Assembly: GCA_963727715.1 (NCBI GenBank)
Contig: CAVSGX010000003.1
Span: 157-64,156, forward strand
Direction: 5' to 3'
DNA: 64,000 nt
From: an uncultured bacterium
GTDB taxonomy: Bacteria > Patescibacteriota > Minisyncoccia > Phycocordibacterales > DATDWN01
A program made the position numbers and the translations under genes. Every line of letters begins with the position of its first letter. Positions within the stretch are counted from its first letter, which is position 1. Positions 623-49,662 of the stretch are shown in pieces. A model generated the notes under the pieces. That model did no database searches, was not told the DNA's origin, and saw nothing but the letters and a program-made list of their open reading frames with translations.

Positions 623-2101
623 ATGCCTACCATTTCAATTAATAATTGGTTTACAAAATTTTTTCTCATTTCCATTTTTCTATACACGCCTGTTGTTTTT
701 GCTGATGGATCGGTCAGCATTCAATCTCTCTCGCCAGGGCAAACCGACAGAGTTGGCAATGAAGTGACATTTAACATTGTCTCATCTGGTTTTAATAGTG
801 CGATTTCTTATGCAATTTCCGACTCACTTTCCGGGAGCAGTATCTCCTCAAGCAACATTAATTCAAACGGAATTTTTGCTTGGATACCGACGTCTGCTGA
901 TGTTGGCACTCATAATCTGACCATCAATTTGACAGATCAATCCGGTGATTCGGCTACTCTAACAGAACAGCTAATTGTTCCCCTTTTGCCGGTCGTCTCC
1001 ATAAACTCTGTTTCTCCAGGTTCATCAGTAAACGTCGGACAAACCGTCTTCTTTAATGCATCAGCCGTCGGTTTTATCAATCCGCAATATTCAGTGGCGG
1101 ATTCGGTTATGACTTCCAGTTTGACTCCTTCGGCTATAAATTCTTCCGGCGGTTTCAGTTGGACGCCGAAAAATCAAGATGCCGGAAGTCACAGTATTAC
1201 CGTTACGGCCAACGATTATTTGGGTGACAGCGCCAGCGCGACAATCGGTGTAAATGTCGGTGTTGTCTCATCCAGCATACAATCTCTCTCACCCAGCGCG
1301 ACGGTTTTTCTATCTCAAAATGTTACGTTTACTGTCGTTACGACTGGATTTACCAATCCAACCTATACGATTTCCGATTCTCTCTATGGAAGCAGTATCA
1401 ACAGTTTAAACATAGATTACAACGGAAATTTTAGTTGGACACCAAAAAGTCAAGATGTTGGTTCGCATAATATCACCGTAATGGTTAGAGATTCTCTGGG
1501 TAATGTTTCCACGGTATCGCAACCGATAATTGTTTCCGGTACTGGTATTTCAATAAGTTCCATGAGCCCCGGACTCTCAATTACACCCGGAACGATTTTT
1601 GCTTTCATCGCTTCAACCACGGGATTTGTTAATCAATCGGTTTATTCTGTATCTGATTCGTTTGTTGGGACGAGTCTTACAACAAAAAATATAACTGCTG
1701 ACGGAGTTTTCAGTTGGACCCCGATTTTAAGCGACATTGGCACGCATACGATATCGGTTTTCACCTTGGATAATTTTGGTCAAAGTTTAAGAAGTAGTAT
1801 TACTGTAAATGTCGCACAAGCGACGACAACCACCACAACTTTAGGGACAAATTCGGTTGGTAATAACACAACCACAGGAGCACTCAAATATCACTTCTCC
1901 CATCCCCTTTCTGTTGGTTCGAGAGGCGCGGATGTTACAGCTTTGCAAAACTTTTTGATCAGCCAAAAATTTTTCTCCGGCCCGATCAGTGGATATTTTG
2001 GCTCATTGACATTCGCCGCGGTTAAAAAATTTCAAAAAGCCCACAATCTTTCACAGGTTGGTACGGTTGGTCCGCTGACTCGGGCTTTACTCAATCAATA
2101 A
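623..2101 (+). CDS. Cell-surface protein: N-terminal hydrophobic anchor/signal, five tandem Ig-like repeats of about 95 aa, C-terminal peptidoglycan-binding-like domain
   Basis: 492-aa ORF. Hydrophobic N-terminus FTKFFLISIFLYTPVVFA. Repeat unit (SIQSLSPG..VTF..TGF.N..Y.ISDS..GSSI....GNFSWTP...DVGSHNITV) recurs 5 times. C-terminus GSRGADVTALQNFLISQKFF..GYFGSLTFAAVKKFQKAH resembles the PG_binding_1 helical domain. Confidence 0.6.
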   Translation: MPTISINNWFTKFFLISIFLYTPVVFADGSVSIQSLSPGQTDRVGNEVTFNIVSSGFNSAISYAISDSLSGSSISSSNINSNGIFAWIPTSADVGTHNLTINLTDQSGDSATLTEQLIVPLLPVVSINSVSPGSSVNVGQTVFFNASAVGFINPQYSVADSVMTSSLTPSAINSSGGFSWTPKNQDAGSHSITVTANDYLGDSASATIGVNVGVVSSSIQSLSPSATVFLSQNVTFTVVTTGFTNPTYTISDSLYGSSINSLNIDYNGNFSWTPKSQDVGSHNITVMVRDSLGNVSTVSQPIIVSGTGISISSMSPGLSITPGTIFAFIASTTGFVNQSVYSVSDSFVGTSLTTKNITADGVFSWTPILSDIGTHTISVFTLDNFGQSLRSSITVNVAQATTTTTTLGTNSVGNNTTTGALKYHFSHPLSVGSRGADVTALQNFLISQKFFSGPISGYFGSLTFAAVKKFQKAHNLSQVGTVGPLTRALLNQ

Positions 2102-4593: not shown

Positions 4594-4665
4594 GGCCTGG
4601 TCGTCAAGTAGTAAGACATAGATCTGCAAAATCTATACACGCGGGTGCAATTCCCGCCCAGGCCT
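4594..4665 (+). tRNA. Candidate tRNA-Cys (anticodon GCA) with noncanonical T-loop
   Basis: Manual fold: acceptor GGCCTGG/CCAGGCC, anticodon arm TAGAT-CTGCAAA-ATCTA (GCA), T-arm GCGGG-TGCAATT-CCCGC, discriminator U73 (a Cys identity element). G at position 55 and a D-loop without GG are atypical. Starts 1 nt after the rbfA stop. Confidence 0.4.
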
Positions 4666-4698
4666 CAAGAAAAAGCAAAACTTTTTCTCTTGCAATTT

Positions 4699-4783
4699 GC
4701 CCGAGTGGCGGAACTGGTATACGCGCACGACTTAAAATCGTGTCTCGAAAGGGATGTGGGTTCGATTCCCACCTCGGGCACCA
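4699..4783 (+). tRNA. tRNA-Leu (anticodon UAA)
   Basis: Acceptor GCCCGAG/CTCGGGC, anticodon arm CACGA-CTTAAAA-TCGTG, long variable arm, T-arm TGGGT-TCGATTC-CCACC, encoded CCA. Confidence 0.85.
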
Positions 4784-4883
4784 AAATAGAACTCAACGGT
4801 TTTCGATCCCAGACAAAAAGCAATAACATTGCTTTTTTCTGAGTCACAAATTAAAAACTGCCTTAACAGCAGTTTTTAATTTG

Positions 4884-4956
4884 TGCACCCAGCAGGGATC
4901 GAACCTGCGACCTTCTCCTTAAGAGGGAGTTACTCTACCAGCTGAGTTATGGGTGC
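4884..4956 (-). tRNA. tRNA-Lys (anticodon CUU)
   Basis: Reverse complement folds: acceptor GCACCCA/TGGGTGC, D-arm ACTC-AGCTGGTA-GAGT, anticodon loop CTCTTAA, T-arm GCAGG-TTCGATC-CCTGC. Confidence 0.8.
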
Positions 4957-5044
4957 TCGGTAAATTAGATTTCATATTAGCATAAATAATTCAAATCATA
5001 AAATACTTTATATTTTTTATTTATTAGTGTAATGTAAATACATC

Positions 5045-5125
5045 GGGCGAGTGGTGAAATGGCAGACACACCAGCTTTAGGAGCTGGTGCCGCAAGGCAT
5101 GGGAGTTCAAGTCTCCCCTCGCCCA
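5045..5125 (+). tRNA. tRNA-Leu (anticodon UAG)
   Basis: Acceptor GGGCGAG/CTCGCCC, anticodon arm CCAGC-TTTAGGA-GCTGG, long variable arm TGCCGCAAGGCAT, T-arm GGGAG-TTCAAGT-CTCCC. Confidence 0.8.
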
Positions 5126-5290
5126 CAAAAAACAAACTGCATTAGCGATTTTTGATTCCTATCTCAATCCCATATTCCATCCTTATTTAAAGTTATATTT
5201 TTTGTAGTCCAAAACCTTGACTTTTTATTGTTTTTATGATAGCATCTAATCAGGTGTCAGTTCTTTGACACTTGAAAGGAAAAGAGAAAA

Positions 5291-6505
5291 ATGCGAAAGT
5301 TTTGGGTGACCCTATTTGTTTCTGTCATCTTGGCTGTGCTTGCCTACGGGTTGAGCGAGTTAAGCGACGGAGAAGTATCATTCTTGGCGATGTTTTTCTG
5401 CGAAGTTGTGATCTGCGCAGTATGCACGATTAGCTTCTGGAAACTCGCCGAACACGATATCATTTTTGGTTTCTTCTCGAGTAACCAAATTGCTATTGTA
5501 GAATCTGGAGAAAAGCCGGTCAAACTGATCGGTATACCAACAGAAGGAAAGTCCATCCAAGGACTCAAAGTCCTGTCAGGTGAACAGAAACCAAACTGGT
5601 GGAATCCTTTTGAGATATGGTTCAACATGTTCTTCATTGGTCTGCCATGGAGAAGAATAAAGAGATTTATCCTCATCCATGAAAGATTCAGCAAAGAAGA
5701 ATTACCAAGGGGTGCCTCGCCGACAAAGTATATTGTTGCGGATCCAGAAGACGAACATCCGGCGGAACGATTTTTGCTCGGTAATTCTTTGCACGATTTC
5801 ATCGTGCCAGATATTGAGCTTGCCGAGGGATACTCGGCGCACATCAAAGTAACCGGCGAACTGGATCTGGAAGATCCGATTATCTCCGTCTACAGGAGAG
5901 CTGGAAGTTCACCTCACAAAGATGGTCTCTACAAGGTTAACTTCTACGGGCCAATCGGCGATGTGGTCAACACAGCCGTCGACAATGCCTGCAGAGGCAT
6001 GGGCTACTACCCGTCTGATCCAAAACCGGTAGACCCGAACATACCTCAACCAATTCTCTCAGACAAAGAATCACTCAATAAGAATGGTTTTTTGGCTGCA
6101 GACAAGTCCAGCCAAGGCACCCTATGCCAGATTATTTTGAAAGAAATCGCGGCCTCGGTGCGCCAACTCAGCGGGTATAATGTGATAAGAGTCTTTATCC
6201 CTGGGTGGGATCTGACAACAGACGAACAACGAGATCTCGTGCAACAGCGTGAACGTGCCAGAATCACTCGCGATGTCAAGCTTCTGGAAGCTGAAGGTGA
6301 GAATGCTGGGACGGTCAATCTCATGGCAGCCATGAAGAAGGAGTACCCAAATGCCACTGACTCTGAGTTGGCTCAGAGAGTGACTGAATTGGAAATCTCC
6401 AGAAACATTGCCGGGATGCCAAACCTTACGGTCTACGCTCCTGGTGCTAATTTAGCGGTCAGTACGCCACAACAGAGTGGCAACAAGAAAGGATCTGGCA
6501 AATGA
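5291..6505 (+). CDS. SPFH/band-7-like (stomatin/flotillin/HflKC-like) membrane protein
   Basis: 404 aa. Two N-terminal TM helices, then a soluble domain whose C-terminal part (VIRVFIPGWDLTTDEQRDLVQQRERARITRDVKLLEAEGENAG) resembles the SPFH coiled-coil region (..ERE.RA.I..AEGE..A). Stop overlaps the next start (ATGA). Confidence 0.45.
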   Translation: MRKFWVTLFVSVILAVLAYGLSELSDGEVSFLAMFFCEVVICAVCTISFWKLAEHDIIFGFFSSNQIAIVESGEKPVKLIGIPTEGKSIQGLKVLSGEQKPNWWNPFEIWFNMFFIGLPWRRIKRFILIHERFSKEELPRGASPTKYIVADPEDEHPAERFLLGNSLHDFIVPDIELAEGYSAHIKVTGELDLEDPIISVYRRAGSSPHKDGLYKVNFYGPIGDVVNTAVDNACRGMGYYPSDPKPVDPNIPQPILSDKESLNKNGFLAADKSSQGTLCQIILKEIAASVRQLSGYNVIRVFIPGWDLTTDEQRDLVQQRERARITRDVKLLEAEGENAGTVNLMAAMKKEYPNATDSELAQRVTELEISRNIAGMPNLTVYAPGANLAVSTPQQSGNKKGSGK

Positions 6506-7632
6506 GCTTCGTTAATTGGGTTATTCTTATAGCTCTGGCCTCACTCTTTTTTGGCCTCTGCTACCTGTTGAACTGGTTGCGTGGAAAGTTCCTAGTAGTT
6601 GACACCTACTGGAAAAACGGCACAATTTGGGCTTTTCTGGCTGTCATACTTGTCCACATGGGCATCTGGTGGCTGTGGCCCGAATTCTGGCATGAGTGGT
6701 GGTCAAGGTCAGGTTTTTTGTTCTTCCAGATTCTGGTTGGGGTAGGATTCTACCTCAGACTCGGTTTGAAAGACAAGAAATTCCTAAGGCACCTTGGGCT
6801 TATCCTTATCGCACTTGGGGTGGTTGGCATCGGCTGGAACATTTACTCCGCTTTGCGGGTTCATCGTTCGGCCACAGAAGTGATGTCACCTGCGGAATTA
6901 AAAAACCTCCCGAAACAGAATTGGGACGGAGAACAAAAGGTGACCAGGTTCTGGAAGAACCATCTGCCGGAAGAGTCTGCTCTGGCGATATTGCGAATCG
7001 TCAGACGTCAGTCCGGCTTCAACCAGTTTGGCGAAAATGGTAAGCCATACCGCAATCCGGCAAACCCGTCAAAGGTCGGGGTGATGCAGATTGACGACTC
7101 GATTTGGTCCGAAAGGGCTCGCGAGCTCGAATATAATCTGTACGAGATGGATGGGAACCTCCGCTTCGCGCTCTGGCTCTACAAGGAGCAAGGGTTTGCG
7201 CCCTGGCTCGGGAATAGTCAGACCACGCTTGATTCAGCCAAACAGGTTTCGTCGGCTATTGGTGATGCTTTCAGTAGCAAACCGAAGGCCGACGAGCGAC
7301 AGGCCAAAAGAATTCGGGACTTTCTGGACAGAAACAGGACAGATAATCCCGAGGTCTTGACGCGGTTGATTCGGACCATAGAAATGTGGCCGACAATGAT
7401 CGGACCACGTTCTCGGGTTGTCAACATTCCGGCCACCGGCTGGAGTGAAAAGATCGCAATCGGAAAAACTCCGATGCGAATCCGTCCGTCAGAAGACATG
7501 GTCGTGTCAGACGACCATGGCAGAGAATATCCAATCTCTGTCATCAATCCGAACTGGAACTTTCCCCCTACCGAATGGGTGAGATACCGGTCGGTCTCTG
7601 GCAAGCCAGCCATCGTGCTGGTCAGCCCATGA
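6502..7632 (+). CDS. Polytopic membrane protein (4 TM) with C-terminal SLT/lysozyme-like domain; catalytic Glu replaced by Gln
   Basis: 376 aa. Segment ALAILRIVRRQSGFNQFGENG..PSKVGVMQIDDSIW..EYNLYEMDGNLRFALWLY matches SLT family-1 motifs (ES-GFNP, GLMQI, Y..DP.NI) but has RRQSGFN where RQESGFN is expected. Confidence 0.45.
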   Translation: MSFVNWVILIALASLFFGLCYLLNWLRGKFLVVDTYWKNGTIWAFLAVILVHMGIWWLWPEFWHEWWSRSGFLFFQILVGVGFYLRLGLKDKKFLRHLGLILIALGVVGIGWNIYSALRVHRSATEVMSPAELKNLPKQNWDGEQKVTRFWKNHLPEESALAILRIVRRQSGFNQFGENGKPYRNPANPSKVGVMQIDDSIWSERARELEYNLYEMDGNLRFALWLYKEQGFAPWLGNSQTTLDSAKQVSSAIGDAFSSKPKADERQAKRIRDFLDRNRTDNPEVLTRLIRTIEMWPTMIGPRSRVVNIPATGWSEKIAIGKTPMRIRPSEDMVVSDDHGREYPISVINPNWNFPPTEWVRYRSVSGKPAIVLVSP

Positions 7633-7652: not shown

Positions 7653-7690
7653 AGTCGCGTGGCCAAATGGTTGCGCGACTTTTCTTTTAC
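7653..7690 (+). terminator. Rho-independent terminator after the SLT-like gene
   Basis: 7-bp stem AGTCGCG/CGCGACT, 12-nt loop, followed by TTTTCTTTT. Confidence 0.5.
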
Positions 7691-7764: not shown

Positions 7765-8049
7765 TTACAACTTTGTTCCTATAAATGGCACATTGGTGGT
7801 ATTGGGAGTTACGCCGAAGGTATTCAAGACAAAACTGATGATACCATAAACCGAAAACATTATGAGCATTCCAACCAGTCCCCAAATGATAGCGTCCCGC
7901 GCCTCCACCTTCTTGCTATCCGAAGGTTCTAATCTCAAATATTCCACTATGCCATAGATGAAATAAACAGTGGCGACGGCGAAAAGAAGCAGAATAATCG
8001 GATTCAAAATCTCGGCGTCTACATTTTGTAGAAACTTGGTAATGTCCAT
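7765..8049 (-). CDS. VirB2/TrbC-like (T4SS-type) pilin paralog A (no obvious signal peptide)
   Basis: 94 aa; two hydrophobic helices separated by the loop YLRLEPSDSKKVEARDAIIWG; same architecture as the five paralogs downstream. Confidence 0.5.
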   Translation of the reverse strand: MDITKFLQNVDAEILNPIILLLFAVATVYFIYGIVEYLRLEPSDSKKVEARDAIIWGLVGMLIMFSVYGIISFVLNTFGVTPNTTNVPFIGTKL

Positions 8050-8064
8050 TTATGTGAGAATGAA

Positions 8065-8421
8065 TTATAGACCGGTAACTGTAGGAGGCTGAAGACCATT
8101 GTTGTCGCTCTTGACTCCGAATATTCCTGTCAGCCAACTGACCAAACCAAACAGAGCGGCCATAACAGCTATGGCAACAACACCCCAGATCATAATACCG
8201 CGTCCTTCCTTGGCTTTTTCCGGGTCGCCGGCAGATCCGATGTATTTTATTAAACCCCAGAAGAAATAAATAATAGCCAATCCGAACATTATAGGAATCA
8301 AATCCTTAACAATTGTGCCGAGACCAGTAACCCAACTCTGTATATAACTAGTACCGGTTTGATTTTGAGCTAAGGCCAAAACTGGTCCAAAAGCTAACAA
8401 ACCATAAAAAATTCTTTTCAT
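8065..8421 (-). CDS. VirB2/TrbC-like pilin paralog B
   Basis: Start trimmed to MKRIFYG. Signal peptide MKRIFYGLLAFGPVLALA, then Q; two TM helices; loop IGSAGDPEKAKEGRGIMIWG. Confidence 0.55.
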   Translation of the reverse strand: MKRIFYGLLAFGPVLALAQNQTGTSYIQSWVTGLGTIVKDLIPIMFGLAIIYFFWGLIKYIGSAGDPEKAKEGRGIMIWGVVAIAVMAALFGLVSWLTGIFGVKSDNNGLQPPTVTGL

Positions 8422-8563
8422 TATTTTTTTGTTATTAATAATTAATAAAATCTTAAAACTAATAGTAAACGCGCTAAACACCGACCACGCTTTTACGAAT
8501 ATACCTATATTATATATCAAAAAAGCCAAAAAACAAGGGGCTGTGGATAAAAATTCACCATAA

Positions 8564-8986
8564 TCAATTTCCAGTACAAGGCCCTCCTTCATCTCCGACA
8601 TTGCCCGAAACAAAGCAAGGTGTGCTACCGCCGGATACACCATTACCGGAGCCGGAGGCGTTAGATTGCTGTGTACCAACCACCAAGCTTCCGACCAGAG
8701 AAATTACACCAGCCAGAGAAAATATGACGGCTATGGCTACAATCCCCCACATTATTTTCAATCTGCCTTCTCTGCGTGCTTCCTCCTCTCCGGAATGCAA
8801 AATGAACTGTCCGACACCCCAGAAAAAGTAAACCACGGCCAAACCGGCCATAACAGGCAGTATACTGCCGACGATTTTGCCTGTGGATGTCAGTAAATCT
8901 TTAACCCCGTTTGAATTGGCGGCCGAGGAAACTGCCGGCAAGAACAAGCAAAACGACAGGATAATTGGATACAATTTTCTTTTCAT
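8564..8986 (-). CDS. VirB2/TrbC-like pilin paralog C with Gly/Ser-rich Cys-containing C-terminal tail
   Basis: 140 aa; signal peptide; two TM helices; loop HSGEEEARREGRLKIMWG; C-terminus GSGNGVSGGSTPCFVSGNVGDEGGPC. Confidence 0.55.
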   Translation of the reverse strand: MKRKLYPIILSFCLFLPAVSSAANSNGVKDLLTSTGKIVGSILPVMAGLAVVYFFWGVGQFILHSGEEEARREGRLKIMWGIVAIAVIFSLAGVISLVGSLVVGTQQSNASGSGNGVSGGSTPCFVSGNVGDEGGPCTGN

Positions 8987-9003
8987 ATTTTATAAATAAT
9001 AAA

Positions 9004-9354
9004 TTACGGCAAAAGCGAACCACTCTCACTCGGAGAGGAAAAACCAAAAGTGTTGGTGGCTATGCCGATGATGGCCACATAGGAAGTTAGAATGAACAGA
9101 ACCAAAATGCCCCACATCATATATTCTTTGCCTGTTTTCAATAATTTTTCGTCTCCGGCTGAAATGACATATTTGGTCAATCCCCAAATGAAAACAATAA
9201 AAGCCAGAGCGAAAAGTATCGGTATGAGAAGATTAATCAAACTAATAACATAAGAGACGATGTCGCTAAATGAGCTGTTTTCCAAACTGAAACCTTGAGC
9301 CGAAACAAGCAAAGGAGAGAAATATAAAATTGGCAAAATAAAATATTTTTTCAT
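9004..9354 (-). CDS. VirB2/TrbC-like pilin paralog D
   Basis: Start trimmed to MKKYFILPIL (overlaps the stop of paralog E, ATGA). Signal peptide ends VSA then Q; loop ISAGDEKLLKTGKEYMMWG. Confidence 0.55.
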   Translation of the reverse strand: MKKYFILPILYFSPLLVSAQGFSLENSSFSDIVSYVISLINLLIPILFALAFIVFIWGLTKYVISAGDEKLLKTGKEYMMWGILVLFILTSYVAIIGIATNTFGFSSPSESGSLLP

Positions 9355-9740
9355 TTGGTTAAAAGGGTTTTGATAGTGGCTTGCAGAACTTCCGATATGC
9401 CCGTAGCGGCCAAAATAACACCGACTCCGATAAGTGACCAAAGAAGATTCTGTTTAGCATCTTTTATTTCTTGAGGATTGCCTTTGGCCTGGACAAACTT
9501 AAAACCGGCCCAGATGACCCAGACAACGCAAGCCACTCCGGCAATGGGCATAATGATGTTAGTTAAGATGGCTGTCAACAAAGTCAAAAGAGTGCAGTCA
9601 CCGCCAGCCCCACCACAATTGAAAGGATTCGGGATGCTGACGGATTGATTAAAATCTTGGGCGTGCGTTGCAAACGGTAAAATGATAAGGAACAAAACCA
9701 CAACCCCGAACAAATATCTTGCGTATTTTTTTCTTTTCAT
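9351..9740 (-). CDS. VirB2/TrbC-like pilin paralog E
   Basis: 129 aa; signal peptide ends THA then Q; CGGAGGDC disulfide-like motif; two TM helices; loop QAKGNPQEIKDAKQNLLWS. Confidence 0.55.
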   Translation of the reverse strand: MKRKKYARYLFGVVVLFLIILPFATHAQDFNQSVSIPNPFNCGGAGGDCTLLTLLTAILTNIIMPIAGVACVVWVIWAGFKFVQAKGNPQEIKDAKQNLLWSLIGVGVILAATGISEVLQATIKTLLTK

Positions 9741-9759
9741 ATTTTTAAAATTGTTTAAA

Positions 9760-10194
9760 TTACTTCAAAAGTTGTGGGACACCAGTACCGGCTGTTAAAG
9801 TGGTCATAATCAGATTTATTACCAACCAAGCTCCCAAAACCCAGAAAATACCCCAAAGAACTTTGACAAACATATCGTTAGCCTCTTTTCGTTTGTCCGG
9901 TTTACCTCCAGATGTCAGGTAAATATAACCGGCATAGACAATAACGATCACAGAAAAAGGTAGAGCAACACTAACCACGGCAAAGTTTGTGACTTGTTTA
10001 ACTGCATCAATCAATTGGGCAAAAGTGCTACAAGGACCACCGCCTGGACAAACATAAGATATTCCACTTGGTTTTCCTAGACCCTGCTGGTCTTGAGCTG
10101 TGATCGAAGTCGTAGGTATCAAAACAAAAAGAACAAAAATAACTACCAAAATTTTTTCACCAATATTCTTCCTTGTTCCTTTTAGAAATTTCAT
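9760..10194 (-). CDS. VirB2/TrbC-like pilin paralog F
   Basis: 144 aa; signal peptide ends ITA then Q; CPGGGPC motif; two TM helices; loop TSGGKPDKRKEANDMFVKVLWG. Confidence 0.55.
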   Translation of the reverse strand: MKFLKGTRKNIGEKILVVIFVLFVLIPTTSITAQDQQGLGKPSGISYVCPGGGPCSTFAQLIDAVKQVTNFAVVSVALPFSVIVIVYAGYIYLTSGGKPDKRKEANDMFVKVLWGIFWVLGAWLVINLIMTTLTAGTGVPQLLK

Positions 10195-10198
10195 GCTT

Positions 10199-11488
10199 TT
10201 ATTTTAACGCATCATTTAAATTTTGACTAGCTGAGTTTACAGAGTCGCTGATTTGGGACTGGCCACTGGTTATGGAATTTATCATACTGCCGAAGATACT
10301 GGACGTTTGCGAAGGATCCGGATCAACAAACGATCTTGCGATCAAGGCCGAATTGTAGAAAACCACGCGATATGGATCTGTCGGCAGATTGGACAAAAGA
10401 TCTCGACGGGCTGACGGCAGATTCGTTTGAGCTTCCAGAGCTGTCAGGGCGGCCGGCTCGGTCAGTGAAGTGACCAAAGTAAAAGCTCCTGCCACAGATT
10501 TGGATTGTTTGACAATGGCTGTGGCATAAATATGAGCGAAATCTATCTTATTTGTCCCACCGCGAATCTGCGGAATATCCGTGACATCAAAGTTTAAATT
10601 CGGATTTTTCTGTTGGACGGGAAAAAGTTCGCTGGCTTCTCCGACATACATAGCCAGATTGCCGGAAAGGAAAAAGTTTAAAGAAGAAGGTAAAGCTCTG
10701 TTCCAACTGTAATAAGCTGAAGTTGGGTTGGAAAATTGGGTGTAAAAATTCAAAGCCGACTCTGCCGGAGAAATCGCTTGGCCGGAATTTTCGTCCAAAA
10801 ACGAAGAGTATTTTTTTTGAGTGGAGTCGTAGCTTACAATCGGCGTGCCGGCTTGCAGAAAAAGTAAAGACAAAATTTCTTTGGCGTTTGTCACATTATC
10901 CCATTCACCAAAAGAGATAGCGCTTTGGGAGATATCGGCCGAGCTGTCTTTGATTGTGATTTTCCCGGTCAAGTTGTAAAGCTCGTCCCAATATTTCGGC
11001 GGGGTGGCGACCAGAGAGTTCCCAAAAAGATCGCGATTCCAGTACAAAACCAACGGATCAACATAAAGAGGCAAAGCGGTAACACCATCTGGCGTCAAAA
11101 ACATTTCAGCTTCTTGGGTGAAAGTATCTTTGAATGTTCTTTCGGAATAACTCGTGTAAGGTATAACTAAAAGTCTGTTTCGGTTTTTGTAGAGAGAATC
11201 TTCGCGCATGACCACCACATCCGGCCCGGTGCCGTCTGCCAAAGCTTCTATAAAATCGGTATCAAAACTGCTCTGATTTTTTTGGATATAATTTACATTG
11301 ATGTATTTATTTTTACTGACAGAAGATGCTTTGTATAAAGTAGTCCATTCGTCTTGAGACATAACCCCCCAAACTTTCAGATTGTACGTTGTTTGTCCGG
11401 CGCCGGCTTTGTACATAGCAAAAAGTATCACTCCAACGACGATGCTGACCGAGAAAATGGCAATGACGACGATTTTAAAATTACTCAT
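10199..11488 (-). CDS. Membrane-anchored extracellular solute-binding-protein-like (SBP_bac_1/MalE-like fold) protein
   Basis: 429 aa; N-terminal TM anchor; motifs GPDVVVMREDSL, LYWNRDLFG, KYWDELYNLTGK typical of family-1 ABC substrate-binding proteins; no permease or ATPase genes adjacent. Confidence 0.5.
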   Translation of the reverse strand: MSNFKIVVIAIFSVSIVVGVILFAMYKAGAGQTTYNLKVWGVMSQDEWTTLYKASSVSKNKYINVNYIQKNQSSFDTDFIEALADGTGPDVVVMREDSLYKNRNRLLVIPYTSYSERTFKDTFTQEAEMFLTPDGVTALPLYVDPLVLYWNRDLFGNSLVATPPKYWDELYNLTGKITIKDSSADISQSAISFGEWDNVTNAKEILSLLFLQAGTPIVSYDSTQKKYSSFLDENSGQAISPAESALNFYTQFSNPTSAYYSWNRALPSSLNFFLSGNLAMYVGEASELFPVQQKNPNLNFDVTDIPQIRGGTNKIDFAHIYATAIVKQSKSVAGAFTLVTSLTEPAALTALEAQTNLPSARRDLLSNLPTDPYRVVFYNSALIARSFVDPDPSQTSSIFGSMINSITSGQSQISDSVNSASQNLNDALK

Positions 11489-12012
11489 AATTTCTTGAAA
11501 ATTAAACCGTAATGATGAGGACCAGCAACAATTTCTCTATCCAAATGAAAACCGTTTTTTTCAAACATTTCTTGAGCGTCTTTTTTTAGAAAAACTTTTT
11601 CCGGCGCTGGGCCGATACCGCCGAAAGAATCGTTCCAATCCACAACCAAAACTCGTCCATTCGGTCTAAGAATCCGTTTGATTTCATCCAAAACAGCCTG
11701 CTTTTGTTCCAACTGAAAAAGAATGTTAGTCAAAAACACCAAATCAATAGAAGCGTCTGCCAAATGTGTGCCAGACGGTTTTTCAACGTCCCCCCAAATA
11801 ATTTCGACATTGTACAAACCCTGCGAAATGGCTTGGTTTCTTATTTTAACCAACAGGTCTTTTTGAACATCAATAGCATAAACTCGGCCGGTGGCGATCA
11901 AAGCTCTGGCCGCGGCGATAGTGTAAAAACCGGAACCGGCGCCGAAATCGGCGATTTCCATTCCAGCCTGTATACCGCAACTTTCCATAATTTTTTGAGG
12001 GTCAGAGAACAT
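11485..12012 (-). CDS. Class I SAM-dependent methyltransferase
   Basis: Motif I IADFGAGSGFYTIAAARA; post-I acidic residue in YAIDVQ; start trimmed because the longer ORF runs into the palindromic repeat at 12060-12225. Confidence 0.7.
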   Translation of the reverse strand: MFSDPQKIMESCGIQAGMEIADFGAGSGFYTIAAARALIATGRVYAIDVQKDLLVKIRNQAISQGLYNVEIIWGDVEKPSGTHLADASIDLVFLTNILFQLEQKQAVLDEIKRILRPNGRVLVVDWNDSFGGIGPAPEKVFLKKDAQEMFEKNGFHLDREIVAGPHHYGLIFKKL

Positions 12013-12059
12013 ATCTATATTATAGTATGAAAATTTATAAATGAAAAGAAAAAAGTGGA

Positions 12060-12225
12060 CAAATCTCACATCATTTTTATTTTTTGGAGACGAAAGCTCG
12101 GCCAGCGCCGAGCTTTCTCGGTCCTCGCCTCGGATTTGTCAAGAGCCCTCGCAAAGCTCGGGTCATTGACAAAACCAGCTCCTCGCCTGCGGATGCTCCA
12201 AAAAATAAAAATGATGTGAGATTTG
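12060..12225. repeat. MITE-like element with 26-bp perfect terminal inverted repeats and a GC-rich core (family C)
   Basis: CAAATCTCACATCATTTTTATTTTTT at one end and its exact reverse complement at the other, flanking a GC-rich core with internal hairpins (GCTCGGCCAGCGCCGAGC). Confidence 0.6.
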
Positions 12226-15922: not shown

Positions 15923-16956
15923 CCCCTAGCCACCTTTGAAGTAGGACAGTTAGAATTAATGCATTAGTCGAAAATTAATTTTAATTGTCATATGAAAAAC
16001 AAATATCATCATTTGTCTTTTGAAGAGAGGTTTTGTATTGAAAAGATGTATTGCGCCGGTTCGGCCATTCGCAAAATTGCCGAATTTCTCGGTCGGAGTG
16101 TCAACACTGTGAGCAGAGAAATACAAAAACACAGTGTTAATGGGGTGTATGAAGCGGAAAAAGCCAAGCAGAAAGTTTCAATGAAAAGATGGCGAGCCAA
16201 ACAGCAGTGTCTGAAAGTGGCGCTTGACCCGTTTCTCTGTCGATTCGTGGTGGAACGATTAACCAAGCCGTATCATTGGTCGCCGAAGCAGATTAGCGGG
16301 TATCTTGAATGTGAAATGGGTATCATCTGCTCGGCCAAAGCCATATACAAATTTGCCGAGTCGAGAGGTCTAAACCACCTGCTTTTTTGGGGTTGGAACA
16401 ATCACAAGGGTGGGAGAAAACGAAATCATTGGAAGCACATTCAGGATGGCAGGAAGTATATTGATGTCAGACCGGAGAGAAAAGGTCTAGGACACATTGA
16501 GCTCGATTTCATCGTTTCCAAAGACAGTTCGTGGGTACTTTTGGTTGCTGTGGATTGGCAAGCCAAAAGAACATGGGTCAGGAAACTGCCCAACAGAAAA
16601 CGCGACACTATTCGTGCCGCGCTTTCCCGTCTGTTCCATGGTGTTGAATTGAAGAGCATCACCACAGACAACGATATTGCATTCACCTGTTGGAAAGAGT
16701 TGGAAACTCTCCTGCAAGTGCCAATCTATTTTACACATCCATACCATTCTTGGGAAAAAGGTCTGGTGGAAAACACCAACAGATGGATCAGATGTTTTGT
16801 GCCTAAACGAAGAGATATTGAGTCAGTCACTGAGGAAGAATTGCAAGAAATACATTCCTTCCTAAACAACCGACCGAGAGAAGTGATTGGCTTCCGCGCG
16901 CCAATGAGTTATTATTCAAACATTAGTTCTGTCCTACTTGAGGGGTAATTGGAGGC
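15923..16956 (+). mobile_element. IS30-family insertion sequence, copy 1
   Basis: Boundaries taken from identity with the second copy at 36785-37830 (shared ends CCCCTAGCCACCTTTGAAGTAGGAC ... GTCCTACTTGAGGGGTAATTGGAGGC); single transposase ORF. Confidence 0.8.
15992..16948 (+). CDS. IS30-family DDE transposase
   Basis: 318 aa; N-terminal HTH; C-terminal DDE region (..DNDIAFTCW..E..) typical of IS30 transposases; about 99% identical to the copy at 36756-37751. Confidence 0.85.
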   Translation: MKNKYHHLSFEERFCIEKMYCAGSAIRKIAEFLGRSVNTVSREIQKHSVNGVYEAEKAKQKVSMKRWRAKQQCLKVALDPFLCRFVVERLTKPYHWSPKQISGYLECEMGIICSAKAIYKFAESRGLNHLLFWGWNNHKGGRKRNHWKHIQDGRKYIDVRPERKGLGHIELDFIVSKDSSWVLLVAVDWQAKRTWVRKLPNRKRDTIRAALSRLFHGVELKSITTDNDIAFTCWKELETLLQVPIYFTHPYHSWEKGLVENTNRWIRCFVPKRRDIESVTEEELQEIHSFLNNRPREVIGFRAPMSYYSNISSVLLEG

Positions 16957-23510: not shown

Positions 23511-25947
23511 TCAAGAGATGACAAAATTCAGGAGACGGTTTGGAATATGAATTATTTTTAGAACATTTTTGTCGGCAAGCCACTTATCCACACCGGGTAC
23601 TTTCCGAGCCATGGTCACAAGCTCGTCTTTGGACATATCGCGCGCCACCGTGATCTCTGCTCGGACTTTGCCGTTGACCTGAATGACCACACTGACTTCC
23701 CCGCTTTGCATTTTGGCTTTGTCAGCCTCCGGCCATTTCTCGGAAACCAAAAATGTTTTATGACCGAGATTGTGCCAAAGCTCATCGCTTATGTGCGGAG
23801 CGAACGGCGACAAAATTTTCAGAAAAATTTCAAAATATTTTTGTGGCACAGCCGACGCTTTTTCAAATTGGCCGATTAAAATCATCATAGCCGAAATAGC
23901 TGTATTGAAATGCATAATCTCAATATCACCCGAAACTTTTTTGACAGTTTGGTTTAAAAGTATTTCAAGATTTTTATTTTGACCGGCTTTTTCGGATATT
24001 TTCTCTTGCAATTTCCAAACTCGTTCCAAAAATCTTCGCGAACCGGAAATGCTATTTGTGTCCCAGTTGATGGCCTGATCAAATGGGCCCATAAACATTT
24101 CATAAACACGCAAAGTGTCGGCGCCATAAGTTTTAACAATGTCGTCCGGGTTGATAACATTGCCACGCGATTTGGACATCTTCTCGCCGTTCTCGGCCAA
24201 AATGAATCCGTGCGATGTGCGTTTTTTGTACGGCTCGCTTGTCGGCACCAGTCCGATATCAAACAAAAATTTGTTCCAAAATCGCGAGTACAAAAGATGC
24301 AGCGTAGTGTGTTCCATTCCGCCGTTGTACCAATCCACAGGCATCCAGTATTTCAGTTTTTTCATGTCGGCGAATTTTTTGAAATTTTTTGGATCAGCAG
24401 TAGCGCAGAAAATACCAACTGGATCCGGCCCAGTTTGGCATCGTATCCGTTTCGCGCTTGGCCTTGCCTCCACACTTTGGGCATTTGGTGTTGACCCATT
24501 TTGAAATGTTGGCCAGTGGCGACTCGCCGGTTTCTGTCGGCTGATATTTCTCCACTTTCGGCAATTTCAGTGGCAAATCTTTTTCCGGCATAGCAACCAA
24601 TCCACAATTTTCGCAATCCACAACCGGAATCGGCTCGCCCCAGTAGCGTTGTCGTGAAAAAACCCAATCGCGCAGTTTAAATGTTTCTGTCATTTTACCA
24701 CCTGCAAACTCGGTGATTTTTTTCTTGGCTTCTTCACTTTTCATTCCGTCAAATTTGCCGGAGTTGATCATTTTTCCTTCTCCAACATAAGCTTCTTTCA
24801 TTTCTTCCACATTATTTTCAGATGACACCACTTCTTTTATAGGCAAACCATATTTTTTTGCAAACAAAAAATCACGCTCATCATGGGCCGGCACAGCCAT
24901 AACCGCGCCCGTGCCATAGTCGGCCAAAACATAATCGGCAATCCAAACCGGCATTTCTTCGTTGTTTGCGGGATTAACCACCAAAACTCCATTCAATCTC
25001 ACACCCGGTTTTTTCCTTTCGTCGTTTGTCCGTTCAATCTGCGCCGTCTTTTTTGTCTGTTCAAGTATTTTTCGACTTCCGGCTAATTTTTGATTTCCTC
25101 TTTCCAACTTCTGTACCAAGTGATTTTCTGGTGCAACAACCAAATATGTCACACCAAACAAGGTATCCGGCTCGTGTGGTGAAAACTTTTACTTACATTT
25201 TGAAATTTGGATTTTGGATTTATTTGTCATTTGAAATTTGGATTTTGAAATTTATTTCCGCCCCTTCCGAACGCCCAATCCAGTTTCTCTGCTGTAATTT
25301 TTATTTTCTCCAAATAATCCACCGTATCCAAATCTTTGTCCAGACGGTCGGCGTATTTGGTAATGCGCAGCATCCACTGTTCCTTTTCGCGTTTCTCCAC
25401 CGGTGTGCCGCAGCGTTCACATTTGCCGTTCACCACTTCCTCGTTGGCCAGGCCGATTTTGTCTTTCGGACACCAGTTGATGGCGATTTTGCTTTTGTAA
25501 GCTAAATCGTGTTTAAAAAATTGCAGAAAAAGCCACTGCGTCCATTTATAATATTTCGGGTCAGTCGTGTTGATTTCGCGCGACCAATCAAAAGAAATTC
25601 CAAGATAGTTTTATTTGCCGGCGAAAATTTTCCGATATTTTTTTTGGTTACTTCGGCTGGTTGCACGCCGGTTTTGATGGCGTAATTTTCTGTCGGCAAA
25701 CCAAAAGCGTCCCAACCCATCGGATACAGCACATCGTAGCCTTCCATCCTGCGTTTGCGCGCGACGATATCAATCCGATGTATGGTCGTGGATGTCCGAC
25801 ATGCAAGCCATCGCCTGACGGGTATGGAAACTCCACCAGCGCGTAATATTTGGGTTTCTTTGAAAAATCTTCAGCCTGAAAAATTTTCTTTTTCTCCCAT
25901 TCTTTCTGCCATTTTTTTTCTATCGTTGAGTGATTGTACACTTTCAT
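23511..25947 (-). pseudogene. leuS: Leucyl-tRNA synthetase interrupted by at least 4 frameshifts (assembly errors or a pseudogene)
   Basis: Five consecutive ORF fragments (25648-26184 HIGH region HVGHP, 25502-25747 [11 protein letters not shown], 25227-25436, 24394-25161 editing domain, 23511-24473 KMSKS and anticodon-binding domain) are collinear with LeuS; breaks fall at homopolymers such as T8 near 25637. Confidence 0.8.
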
Positions 25948-36755: not shown

Positions 36756-37751
36756 TTAGGTGTATAATATAGGTAGGAGGTGAGGCCTCCCAATTACCCC
36801 CTCAAGTAGGACAGAACTAATGTTTGAATAATAACTCATTGGCGCGCGGAAGCCAATCACTTCTCTCGGTCGGTTGTTTAGGAAGGAATGTATTTCTTGC
36901 AATTCTTCCTCAGTGACTGACTCAATATCTCTTCGTTTAGGCACAAAACATCTGATCCATCTGTTGGTGTTTTCCACCAGACCTTTTTCCCAAGAATGGT
37001 ATGGATGTGTAAAATAGATTGGCACTTGCAGGAGAGTTTCCAACTCTTTCCAACAGGTGAATGCAATATCGTTGTCTGTGGTGATGCTCTTCAATTCAAC
37101 ACCATGGAACAGACGGGAAAGCGCGGCACGAATAGTGTCGCGTTTTCTGTTGGGCAGTTTCCTGACCCATGTTCTTTTGGCTTGCCAATCCACAGCAACC
37201 AAAAGTACCCACGAACTGTCTTTGGAAACGATGAAATCCAGCTCAATGTGTCCTAGACCTTTTCTCTCCGGTCTGACATCAATATACTTCCTGCCATCCT
37301 GAATGTGCTTCCAATGATTTCGTTTTCTCCCACCCTTGTGATTGTTCCAACCCCAAAAAAGCAGGTGGTTTAGATCTCTCGACTCGGCAAATTTGTATAT
37401 GGCTTTGGCCGAGCAGATGATACCCATTTCACATTCAAGATACCCGCTAATCTGCTTCGGCGACCAATGATACGGCTTGGTTAATCGTTCCACCACGAAT
37501 CGACAGAGAAACGGGTCAAGCGCCACTTTCAGACACTGCTGTTTGGCTCGCCATCTTTTCATTGAAACTTTCTGCTTGGCTTTTTCCGCTTCATACACCC
37601 CATTAACACTGTGTTTTTGTATTTCTCTGCTCACAGTGTTGACACTCCGACCGAGAAATTCGGCAATTTTGCGAATGGCCGAACCGGCGCAATACATCTT
37701 TTCAATACAAAACCTCTCTTCAAAAGACAAATGATGATATTTGTTTTTCAT
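36756..37751 (-). CDS. IS30-family DDE transposase (copy 2, C-terminally extended)
   Basis: 331 aa, identical to copy 1 except G115D and the extra C-terminal VIGRPHLLPILYT. Confidence 0.85.
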   Translation of the reverse strand: MKNKYHHLSFEERFCIEKMYCAGSAIRKIAEFLGRSVNTVSREIQKHSVNGVYEAEKAKQKVSMKRWRAKQQCLKVALDPFLCRFVVERLTKPYHWSPKQISGYLECEMGIICSAKAIYKFAESRDLNHLLFWGWNNHKGGRKRNHWKHIQDGRKYIDVRPERKGLGHIELDFIVSKDSSWVLLVAVDWQAKRTWVRKLPNRKRDTIRAALSRLFHGVELKSITTDNDIAFTCWKELETLLQVPIYFTHPYHSWEKGLVENTNRWIRCFVPKRRDIESVTEEELQEIHSFLNNRPREVIGFRAPMSYYSNISSVLLEGVIGRPHLLPILYT

Positions 37752-46468: not shown

Positions 46469-49400
46469 ATGCAAAAATTTACACACTTACATACACATAG
46501 CCACTACTCTTTACTTCAAGCTTTGCCGAAAATTGACGAGCTGGTTAAGACGGCCAAGAAGATGGGCATGGAGTCACTGGCTTTGACTGACAACGGCAAT
46601 CTTTACGGGGCCATTGAATTTTACAAGGAATGCGACAAGCACGGTGTCAAACCGATTATCGGTGTGGATTTTTATGTGGCGTTTGGATCTAGGCTAGAAA
46701 AACGCGCTGGCGTGGACAAGGAGCGATATCGGCTGGTGCTTCTGGCCGAAAATGAAATCGGCTATAAAAATTTGATTCAGCTTGTGACCGTCTCCCACCT
46801 TGAAGGTTTTTATTACAAACCGCGAGTGGACAAGGAAGTTTTGGAAAAATATCACGAAGGACTTATTGTCATCTCGCCGTCTTTCTCCGGCGACATAGTC
46901 AAATCTCTTGGAATGTCGCGTGATGATGAAGCTCTATCTCGACTTGATTGGTACAGAGAAATTTTCGGACCAGATAATTTTTTTCTGGAAATCACTCATC
47001 ATCCGGAAATAAAAGGTCATCAGGAAAAAATGAAAAAACTTGTGAGCTTTGCCCGAAAGAACAAACACTCCCCTCGTCGCCTGCCACGATGTCTATTATA
47101 TGTCGCCAGAGGACAGACCGGCTCGCGAGACTTTGATGTCTGTTATGAACAACGGCGACTTTTCCGACAGGCAAGATGAAAAAACAGATGACTTCTCTTT
47201 CATTTCACAGGAGACAGCTGAAAAATATTTTGCCGATTTACCGGACGCTTTAGAGAACACTGAGAAAATTGCCGAGAGATGCAATTTGAAATTGGAACTT
47301 GGCAAATGGGTCTTCCCGAATTTCGTCGTGGAAAGCGGGCTCTCGCACGATGAAGAATTAAAAAAACTGACATACGAAGGATTGGTCAAGAGAAATGTTG
47401 AACAAACGAAAGAAGTGACGGAGAGAATAGAATATGAGTTGAGAATTATTTTCAATAAAGGTTATTCGCCGTACTTTCTGGTTGTCGGCGATCTGATGCG
47501 CTACGCTAGCGAGAACGGTATTCTCTCAAACATTCGCGGTTCGGTTTCCGGCTCGCTGGTCACTTACCTCGCCGGTATCACCAACATCAACCCGCTGGAA
47601 TACGACATTCCTTTTGAACGATTTCTTGAACCCTGATCGCCCATCACCGCCGGATATTGATATGGACTTTGCCGACAACCGTCGAGATGAAATGGTGGAA
47701 TACGCCAAACGAAAATATGGCGCGGACAAAGTGGCCCAGATCGGCACTTTCGGCACAATGGCCGCTCGCGGCTCGGTGCGTGATGTGACACGCGCTATGG
47801 GTTTTCCTTACGCACTTCGGTGACAGCATCGCCAAAATGATTCCGTTCGGCGCGCAAGGTTTCCCAATGACCATTGACCGCGCGCTCGCCGAAGTGCCGG
47901 AGTTGAAAGAACGTTTACGACAGCGAAGTAGATGTCAAAACAATAATTGACATGGCCAAAAAAATTGAAGGTTGCGCTCGGCACATGGGCATTCACGCCG
48001 CCGGCGTGGTTATGGCGCCGACGCCGATTACCGATTACACTCCGCTTCAATACGATCCAAAAGGTGAAGGTAAAATCATCACCCAGTATGATATGTATTC
48101 CATTGAAGAGGCCGGACTTTTGAAGTTTGATTTTCTGGGATTGCGAAATCTTTCCATTATCGCCGACACTTTGGCTTTGATAAAAAAATTGGACAATGTG
48201 GATTTTGACGCCGGAAGAAATTCCAATCAATGACAAGAAAACTTTTGAAATGTTGGCGCGAGGCGAAACAGCCGACCTTTTCCAACTCAACGGCGACGGA
48301 ATGACTAAATTTTTGATTGATCTTAAGCCGACCGCCATTCACGACATCAACGCCATGGTCGCTTTGTATCGTCCCGGACCTTTGCAATTTATTCCGCTTT
48401 ACATTCAGGGCAAACACAATCCAGCTAAAGTGAAATATCTAGACCCGATGCTCAAACCAATCTTACAAAAGACTTACGGCGTGCTGGTTTATCAAGACGA
48501 TCTTTTAATGATGGCCAGAAATATTGCCGGCTATTCTTGGATTGAAGTGGACAAATTCCGCAAAGCTGTCGGCAAAAAAATTCCGAAGGAGATGCAGGAA
48601 CAAAAAGAGAAATTTATAAACGGATGCGTGGAACATTCCAAGTGGCCGCTAAAAAAAGCGCAGGAGCTTTGGACATGGATCGAACCTTTCGCCGCTTACG
48701 GTTTCAACAAAGCCCACTCTGTTTCCTACGGTCTCGTGGCCTACCAGACGGCTTACCTCAAAGCCAACTTTCCAGCCGAATATATGGCCAGCGTTTTGAC
48801 TCACCACGACGGCGATGTGGAAAAAGTGTCCGAGTCGGTGCAAGAATGCAAACGCCTCGGTATTTCCATTTTACCACCGGACATCAACGAATCGTTCAAA
48901 GTTTTCACTGTCATAAAATCAAAAACAGCTGACCAGCCAGATAACATTCGTTTTGGACTTAACACCATTAAAAATTTCGGCGAAGGAATTTCCGAATCAA
49001 TAATTTCCGAGCGCAAGAAAAATGGGCCGTACAAATCTCTGTCGGATTTTTTGCGCCGAGTCAAAGATAAAAACCTCAATAAAAAATCTCTGGAGTCGCT
49101 TATCAAAACCGGCGCCCTAGACTCCCTCGGCGATCGCTTCACACTCCTCCACAATCTTGACCGGCTACTGACTTTTCATAAAGAAGAAACAAAATCAGAA
49201 ACAAACCAAGACTCGCTTTTCGGACTTTTTGCCAGCGCGTCGCACAATGAAGTTGAGTTGGAAAAAGCGCCGATCACAAATCAGACAAACAAATTGCAAT
49301 GGGAGAAAGAACTTCTCGGCCTCTACATTTCGGGACACCCGCTAGATAATTTTCGCCACAAACTTGATGGTCGCGAAATGACAATTAAAAAAATTAAAGA

Positions 49401-49662
49401 AACAGTCAAAGATAAGCAAGAAGTAGTTTTTGGCGGGATGATTGAAGAGATAAAACCGATTATGACCAAATCCGGAGACAAAATGGCTTTCATCAGGGTG
49501 GCTGACCTCTCCGGTTCAATTGAAACAGTGGCTTTTCCGAAAGTTTTGGCTGAATTTGTCGACATCCTCGCCCCCGAATCCTGCGTGGTCATCAAAGGAA
49601 CACTCTCTCTGCGCAACGGCGAAAAAAGCGTGTTGATGGAAAAGGTCAGGATGATGGAGTAA
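46469..49662 (+). pseudogene. dnaE: DNA polymerase III alpha subunit interrupted by at least 5 frameshifts (assembly errors or a pseudogene)
   Basis: Collinear fragments 46469-47179 (PHP domain), 47049-47636, 47614-47823, an unannotated stretch 47824-47951, 47952-48233, 48196-49662 (fingers, beta-binding, OB). One break reads CGTTTACGACAGC where ERYDSEVD needs CGTTACGAC, an extra T. Confidence 0.8.

Follow-up and report, generated by a model that had tools for sequence, protein, structure and literature searches.

VirB1* acts non-enzymatically in pilus formation, and alpha-lactalbumin has lost its catalytic residues while its lysozyme fold is kept under selection. Genes for SPFH proteins classically lie in operons with NfeD. 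Patescibacteria depend for their epibiotic life on components of type IV secretion systems (T4SSs) and on arrays of VirB2-like pilins. A 2025 survey of Patescibacteria T4SSs reports such VirB2 arrays, mentions no SPFH partner and finds most VirB2-bearing members without a detectable VirB1, a role that other glycosidases may fill (PMC12102498). The locus we describe here lies in a 64,000-nucleotide stretch of contig CAVSGX010000003.1 (assembly GCA_963727715.1), from an uncultured bacterium of the Patescibacteriota; that whole stretch is what we call the window. Two genes, A and B, encode a very divergent candidate SPFH protein and a membrane-anchored protein with a lysozyme-like domain, and they sit beside an array of VirB2-like pilin genes. 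In gene B both acidic positions of the lysozyme active site are changed. Our favoured explanation, to which we give a probability of about 0.6, is that B is a VirB1-like wall gate held in place by an SPFH protein, and that in this lineage it binds peptidoglycan without cutting it. A first-pass annotation, made from the DNA letters alone, thought the pairing of an SPFH protein with a lysozyme-like protein new, and we too found no paper that describes it.

Genes A and B and their families

The two genes overlap by ATGA, as that annotation had said. At the junction (AAATGAGC) the ATG of gene B shares bases with the TGA of gene A, an arrangement that makes the pair, by its sequence, a translationally coupled operon of two genes. 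Their parts are as follows, with P0xxx labelling the B homologues that we collected and L0xx, below, the related loci.

5291..6505, + strand: gene A, an open reading frame (ORF) of 404 amino acids; putative membrane-anchored, highly divergent SPFH/Band 7 (stomatin-like) protein
5300..5431, + strand: N-terminal hydrophobic hairpin of gene A, residues 4-47, two helices (hydropathy, lysine and arginine counts, AlphaFold2 helices)
6502..7632, + strand: gene B, an ORF of 376 amino acids; predicted anchor of four transmembrane helices, lysozyme-like domain, linker and C-terminal beta domain
6502..6505, + strand: start/stop overlap ATGA of genes A and B, 4 nucleotides
6511..6855, + strand: four-helix membrane domain of gene B, residues 4-118 (hydropathy; AlphaFold2 helices with a predicted local distance difference test score, pLDDT, of 64-85; 68% identical to P0002)
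6904..7221, + strand: lysozyme-like domain of gene B, residues ~135-240 (family profile; hhalign to hen egg-white lysozyme, HEWL)
7009..7011, + strand: CAG codon of Gln170, in the column of the catalytic Glu (HEWL E35; profile alignments)
7072..7074, + strand: codon of Lys191, aligned with the second acid (HEWL D52; profile alignments)
7222..7386, + strand: variable linker of gene B, residues 241-295, 27% identical to P0002
7387..7629, + strand: C-terminal beta-rich domain of gene B, ~80 amino acids, residues 296-376 (purpose-built hidden Markov model, HMM)

The domain of gene B carries the motifs RRQSGFNQ and KVGVMQID. A word-indexed protein search brought up only two real relatives, and P0003, from a Parcubacteria group bacterium metagenome-assembled genome (MAG), is 40% identical to it. 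A full HMMER search with a three-sequence profile reached at least 1052 cluster representatives at E ≤ 1e-3 (clusters defined at 50% identity), 166 of them at E ≤ 1e-10. When 150 homologues were scanned individually against Pfam, SLT was matched by 29 (at E ≤ 0.01, the best at 1.7e-5), SLT_3 by eight, Lys (C-type lysozyme) by four and Transglycosylas by two, with nothing else recurrent; the matches all lie in the lysozyme-like clan. P0003 itself scored 13.5 bits against Pfam SLT (PF01464), below the gathering score of 21.3 bits. In the PDB the family profile matched c-type lysozymes best (6ukc, E = 5.4e-4), with ES aligned on E35-S36 and D.G.MQIN on D52...N59, and hhalign paired the family with HEWL at 88.9% probability (E = 2.4e-6, 44 columns). 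We assign the domain, remotely and transitively, to the lysozyme-like superfamily, in a family that has no Pfam model. The first-pass annotation had gone further and called gene B a family-1 lytic transglycosylase. The superfamily stands on the profiles; family 1 is not supported, there being no SLT match for the protein and the c-type lysozymes matching the family profile at least as well as SLT.

The full architecture of N-terminal helices followed by the domain is present in about 65 of the best 150 homologues, and many of the others are stand-alone domains of ~150 residues. A large set, P0066-P0154, consists of secreted-looking proteins of ~125-200 residues that read CES.FRQ...D.G.MQIN, retain the two acids of c-type lysozymes and score weakly against Pfam models; they appear to be a bacterial lysozyme-like family that has yet to be modelled. 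One fragment, P0135, apparently lacks the lysozyme-like domain and could not be placed on any contig. tblastn of gene B against plasmid and phage collections gave no match and thus no sign of a mobile element.

Four N-terminal hydrophobic helices, noted at first pass, are seen in B by hydropathy and by AlphaFold2. The lysine and arginine counts of its membrane loops (0/3/1/4) predict an N-out, C-out protein, and from that pattern the lysozyme-like domain is predicted to lie outside the cytoplasm. The linker behind it contains what remains of a second lysozyme-like domain, of which a leading helix (...DNPEVLTRLIRT) and a trailing Trp are left. In P0002 this second domain is complete but degenerate (SEASRFNQ...GVMGID); ~75 residues of it are deleted in the window protein. 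The C-terminal beta domain has the consensus APV..WSE...G....F.S....PV.V.V; of the 154 proteins that we collected, 46 end in it, P0031, P0055 and P0076 among them. It has no Pfam or PDB relative.

Gene A has three relatives by word-indexed search, and its assignment runs through orthologues at related loci. Those of seven loci (L006, L009, L011, L012, L013, L017 and L020) score 25.6-39.8 bits against Band_7 (PF01145), whose gathering score is 23.6 bits; the L006 and L011 proteins reach 28.2 and 28.1 bits. A profile of the gene A subfamily (four sequences, A4) aligns by hhalign with the L006 orthologue at 99.2% probability (E = 6.8e-20) and with the L011 orthologue at 99.95% (E = 1.5e-38). Direct alignment with the L013 orthologue failed, so it is the L006 and L011 bridges that carry the SPFH link. 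An eight-sequence family profile searched against the PDB found PH stomatin (3bk6, E = 3.2e-6) and human stomatin (E ~1.5e-5), with prohibitin, HflK and QmcA matched more weakly. Because the orthologues pass Band_7, the hhalign bridges hold and the eight-sequence profile finds stomatins, we assign gene A as a very divergent SPFH (stomatin/flotillin-type) protein, by an admittedly remote and transitive route, and the SPFH-like label it was first given stays. By AlphaFold2 secondary structure and alignment, an N-terminal anchor is followed by the SPFH domain and a helical C-terminal half; the helical region, rich in Ala and Glu, is shorter than in the orthologues, and gene A also carries an insertion. 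The hairpin anchor would probably put the SPFH part in the cytoplasm.

With an SPFH gene upstream and NfeD the classical operon partner, gene B might be an NfeD-type protein into which a lysozyme-like domain has been inserted. Taken without that domain, B is after all a segment of four transmembrane helices and a small beta domain. We consider this very improbable. A search of Pfam at E ≤ 1 and of the PDB gave no NfeD (PF01957) match to B or to 33 aligned C-terminal domains, and the beta domain of B is predicted outside the cell, whereas the OB domain of NfeD faces the SPFH domain.

Glutamine and lysine at the catalytic positions

The first-pass annotation had placed Gln where the catalytic Glu belongs, and our profile alignments agree. 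In an alignment of 150 sequences the column of Q170 holds Glu in 128 of 138 homologues and Gln solely in the window protein and P0002, and the column of K191 holds Asp in 99 of 140. hhalign sets Q170 on HEWL E35 and K191 on HEWL D52. Where the window reads RRQSGFNQ, P0003 reads QEESNFNQ. PEES, a short way upstream, had been put forward as an alternative source of the Glu; it aligns where the helix begins, 13 residues ahead of the catalytic column, and was rejected.

Glu-to-Gln variants are inactive in SLT-type enzymes as well as in lysozymes. The mechanism of glycoside hydrolase family 22 (GH22) uses Glu35 and Asp52, and E35Q variants have been made as inactive constructs (PMC6887759). With Glu replaced by Gln170 and Asp by Lys191, the domain of gene B would almost certainly have lost the canonical way of cleaving glycan. 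In its cleft the motifs SGFNQF, GVMQI and GNLRFALW are strongly conserved and under purifying selection, and because they are, the domain would most likely serve as a module for binding or anchoring peptidoglycan.

The same conservation could mark an enzyme that still works. Gene B might be an active muramidase or lytic transglycosylase that uses another acid (D198 or D199 in MQIDD) or a Gln-tolerant, substrate-assisted chemistry, the change at the catalytic column tuning its activity. There is an acid to point to: the family has a conserved one after QIN, which is Glu in 94 members and Asp199 in the window protein. Set against this are the change at both canonical positions, the standing of E35Q-type proteins as inactive GH22 constructs, and the relatives whose Glu column holds Val, Ala, Lys, Arg or Leu, none of them acids. 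We regard continued activity as improbable and hold to the loss of canonical cleavage.

Could the Gln itself be an artefact? It had been left, at first pass, as either the mark of a catalytically dead protein or a sequence error. CAG is one base from GAG, and the window protein has lost most of the second domain that P0002 keeps, as a sequencing or assembly error or a decaying pseudogene might have it. Yet P0002, from other samples (loci L001, L002 and L016) and 68% identical to gene B, has the same CAG at the catalytic column, while the codons around it differ synonymously between the two (CGT/CGA, TCC/TCT, CAG/CAA). The domain compares with that of P0002 at pN 0.19 and pS 0.64, a ratio of nonsynonymous to synonymous change (dN/dS) of ~0.15 that is a rough figure with synonymous sites near saturation. 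Over the whole of gene B the ratio is ~0.09, the reading frame is intact, and an identical protein is recorded by three sources. Because P0002 shares the CAG amid synonymous changes, and because selection has been purifying, Gln170 is no sequence error, and error or decay is effectively refuted. A protein dead by canonical chemistry is the half of the alternative that the sequence favours, the second acid having also gone.

Loss of the Glu turns out to be recurrent. Among 65 full-length representatives, with the domain realigned, ten lack it (three Gln, two Val, two Ala and one each of Arg, Leu and Lys), and a neighbour-joining tree puts these ten in at least five separate places. Glu is absent in 10 of 65 full-length proteins and 3 of 76 other forms (Fisher p = 0.037). 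P0023 has Val at the catalytic column, yet lies within a complete block of A, B and pilin genes. In one subclade, marked by a GVM.ID motif and by Lys where HEWL has D52, the Glu is gone in most members; this subclade also supplies the second, degenerate domain of P0002. Since the loss recurs and the block around P0023 is intact, it would seem that whatever makes the proteins with four transmembrane helices indispensable is not catalysis.

The pilin neighbourhood and a possible function

The region around the operon holds these further features.

5217..5245, + strand: promoter-like site, TTGACT-17-TAGCAT with TG, ~45 nucleotides 5' of gene A (consensus scan, pattern match alone)
7653..7680, + strand: strong terminator-like hairpin between gene B and the last pilin gene, a 12-bp stem with seven G-C pairs, then a T-run
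7765-8049, 8065-8400, 8564-8986, 9004-9333, 9351-9740 and 9760-10194, - strand: array of six VirB2-like T4SS pilin genes (Pfam T4SS_pilin)
10199..11488, - strand: membrane-anchored SBP_bac_8 protein, upstream of the pilin array and co-oriented with it (Pfam)
11485..12069, - strand: S-adenosylmethionine (SAM) methyltransferase, in the same orientation as the pilin array; belongs to the conserved block (Pfam/ORF)

Five of the six pilin genes score at or above the 26.6-bit threshold of Pfam T4SS_pilin (PF18895), at 27.7, 32.6, 33.5, 50.2 and 26.7 bits; the gene at 9004-9333 falls under it at 19.1 bits. The array also matches the NCBIfam Mbov_0395 pilin-like family. It does adjoin the operon, as had been noted, and in the opposite sense to the divergent one first given: gene B and the six genes of 7765-10194 are convergent, tail to tail. 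The gene for GyrA has the same orientation and lies upstream of the SBP_bac_8 and methyltransferase genes. On the other side, upstream of gene A, are IF-2, RbfA and four tRNA genes. These tRNAs form a cluster (4594-5126) directly 5' of gene A: Cys-GCA, Leu-TAA, Lys-CTT on the - strand, and Leu-TAG.

The arrangement recurs. At every locus with enough flank except L018/L019, an A-family gene of 367-446 amino acids ends 1 or 4 nucleotides inside the start of the B homologue (L001, L003, L006, L009, L011, L012, L013, L014, L015, L017 and L020). Among called genes, the overlap of 4 or 1 nucleotides shows up in ten related loci. Wherever there is downstream sequence, five or six pilin genes converge on B and are followed by the SBP gene, the methyltransferase gene and usually GyrA. 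The whole block, from A and B through the pilins to the SBP and the methyltransferase, is found in about ten loci and is kept across B orthologues 22-33% identical to the window protein. Left of A the neighbours vary (IF-2/RbfA/tRNAs, HisRS/RNase H, enolase, or a sortase or two-component system/histidine kinase), and gene A thus marks the left edge of what is conserved. We take the A-B operon, on this synteny, to be conserved in Parcubacteria-type bacteria, the conservation that the earlier annotation had proposed checking. The metagenome scan for related loci used a 12-sequence alignment; a scan of genome contigs returned only the P0003 MAG already found.

Within the block, the SBP_bac_8 and methyltransferase genes overlap by 4 nucleotides (10199-12069, - strand) and abut the pilin array, co-oriented with it, in the window and in L003, L009, L011, L012 and L014. 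They have no ABC permease or ATPase nearby.

How might such a locus work? An SPFH oligomer of A would cluster B or confine it to a patch of membrane, and coupled translation would keep the two proteins at a fixed ratio. From its four-helix anchor, B would display the lysozyme-like domain and the ~80-residue beta domain outside the cell. Most family members keep both c-type acids (ES...D.G.MQIN), and in most relatives B is probably a local gate that cuts peptidoglycan for the neighbouring pilins, functionally like VirB1, PrgK and TraG. In the window lineage the domain would have been kept as a pseudo-lysozyme that binds or anchors peptidoglycan strands, and any cutting still required would fall to a different enzyme, for example the SLT_2 protein at 57728-58990. 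Gene B would then probably be a cell-wall-binding helper for pili and not a cutting enzyme. The first-pass annotation had drawn a parallel with VirB1 and pilus-assembly hydrolases. It is a plausible one that fits the synteny of some ten loci.

A good deal weighs against this explanation. Searched on their own, the proteins of genes A and B had no Pfam or NCBIfam match even at E ≤ 1, Band_7 and SLT included, an outcome that had been named in advance as telling against the family calls; these held through profiles and bridging homologues. phmmer against the PDB found nothing useful for either protein, and neither the A4 profile nor the three-sequence B profile matched the PDB. Both AlphaFold2 models, built from shallow alignments, are of low confidence. 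That of gene A has a pLDDT of 39.6; that of gene B, from three sequences, reaches 55.3 and drops below 50 across residues 180-271, in the lysozyme-like domain. Orthologues of A differ in how many helices they have, which makes the topology of A uncertain. At L018/L019 the ORF upstream of B (449 amino acids) failed to register as SPFH, and the two do not overlap. VirB4, VirD4 and VirB6 were not found among the large ORFs of the window, so the VirB1 parallel has no T4SS ATPase beside it. What ties the operon to the pilins is that the two adjoin across a convergent junction, in genomes whose gene order is generally conserved; A-B is a transcription unit of its own, and with GyrA inside the block the synteny may partly be plain gene order.

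Much the same facts would suit a general envelope module for growth or division that has nothing to do with pilins, its place beside them inherited with the gene order of small, syntenic genomes. A separate convergent unit with its own terminator-like hairpin, GyrA as a fellow member of the block and the lack of a T4SS ATPase nearby would all be expected of it, and MreB and a PBP2-type transpeptidase are encoded in the same window. We find this doubtful, if deserving of respect. The left flank varies while A-B goes on abutting the pilins, at B identities of 22-33%, and L022 has a short stand-alone domain homologue without pilins, so that the link to pilins is specific to the form with four transmembrane helices.

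A bolder reading joins A, B and the pilin/SBP/methyltransferase operon into one self-contained surface-fibre platform of Parcubacteria that has gone unrecognised. An SPFH cage would organise B, the outward domains would dock or thread VirB2-like pilins at the wall, and the lysozyme fold would have a main task other than catalysis, which would account for its losing the Glu time and again. This is speculative, and we think it rather unlikely. Were it true, Patescibacteria would have their 'missing VirB1', and SPFH scaffolds would be seen in a new role.

On the favoured explanation too, the locus is a testable candidate for the 'missing VirB1', one that current HMMs miss. That the Glu has gone repeatedly, in this lineage along with the second acid, amounts to a natural experiment; it suggests that what is conserved may be binding and not cutting. 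SPFH biology would gain in gene B a client of a new kind. All the parts come from known superfamilies, nothing in them overturns existing knowledge, and the proposed function is read from sequence and synteny.

The rest of the window resembles a core chromosome of the Patescibacteria/CPR, with SMC, RseP, MreB, PBP2, a release factor and tRNA synthetases. At 57728-58990 (- strand) lies the gene for a protein of 420 amino acids, probably an active lytic transglycosylase of the same genome: its N-terminal half is a long coiled coil, and its SLT_2/SLT domain keeps the ES motif intact (LTQESNLG). Near the locus, at 623-2101 (+ strand), is the gene for another cell-wall-associated surface protein, 492 amino acids long, in which several bacterial Ig-like domains are joined by PG_binding_1 at the C-terminus. 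Identical HTH_38 and rve matches (IS30-like transposase) lie inverted ~20 kb apart, at 15992-16948 (+ strand) and 36756-37751 (- strand). Two genes, for a class I tRNA synthetase (23511-25161, - strand) and for DNA polymerase III alpha (46469-49662, + strand), each appear divided among several ORFs that overlap or adjoin; in the latter a 488-amino-acid ORF (48196-49662) begins at the finger domain. Frameshifts or assembly errors could be the cause, or the genes could truly be split.

Comparison with described systems

Dead LytM factors (EnvC, NlpD and DipM), wall-hydrolase homologues that serve as regulators or binders, resemble B in principle: a hydrolase fold keeps the groove for substrate or partner and loses its catalytic residues. 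Theirs is a metallopeptidase fold and chemistry, whereas B belongs with the lysozyme-like glycosidases, and no activating partner enzyme was identified here.

On the side of gene A the comparison is with the SPFH systems: HflK/C with FtsH, stomatin with NfeD, and the flotillins FloA and FloT. Like A, they combine an N-terminal anchor with a Band_7 domain and a helical region rich in Ala and Glu, and in them, too, the SPFH gene is tightly coupled to that of a polytopic membrane partner. Here, however, the partner is a lysozyme-like wall protein and not a protease or NfeD, and Band_7 is undetectable directly in A.

Among wall hydrolases, the VirB1 type (VirB1 of A. tumefaciens and the Gram-positive PrgK, TraG and TcpG) has, like B, a domain of the lysozyme/SLT superfamily beside the pilus genes of type IV secretion. 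The Gram-positive members are membrane-anchored as B is, and the extra C-terminal part of B may act non-enzymatically in the manner of VirB1*. Unlike them, B has no detectable match to VirB1, TrsG or CD419-type models and falls outside Pfam SLT. It also differs in its four-helix anchor, its SPFH partner, its adjoining genes, which are pilins alone with no VirB4 nearby, and the absence here of the catalytic Glu.

SLT lytic transglycosylases (PF01464; Slt70, MltE) have the ES and G-[LV]-M-Q motifs in common with the B family. Most B family members, though, have Asp at the D52 position, which is typical of hydrolytic lysozymes and not of transglycosylases. It is with the c-type (GH22) lysozymes that the family consensus, ES.F.Q ... 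D.G.MQIN..W, aligns on E35-S36 and D52...N59 of HEWL. B departs from them in being bacterial, membrane-anchored and without a disulfide framework, the similarity is one of remote profiles (E ~1e-4 to 1e-6), and many family members score better on SLT than on Lys. Even so, the fate of the domain in the window lineage has its likeness among the lysozymes' own relatives: as in alpha-lactalbumin, the catalytic residues have been lost and the fold would have been kept under selection.

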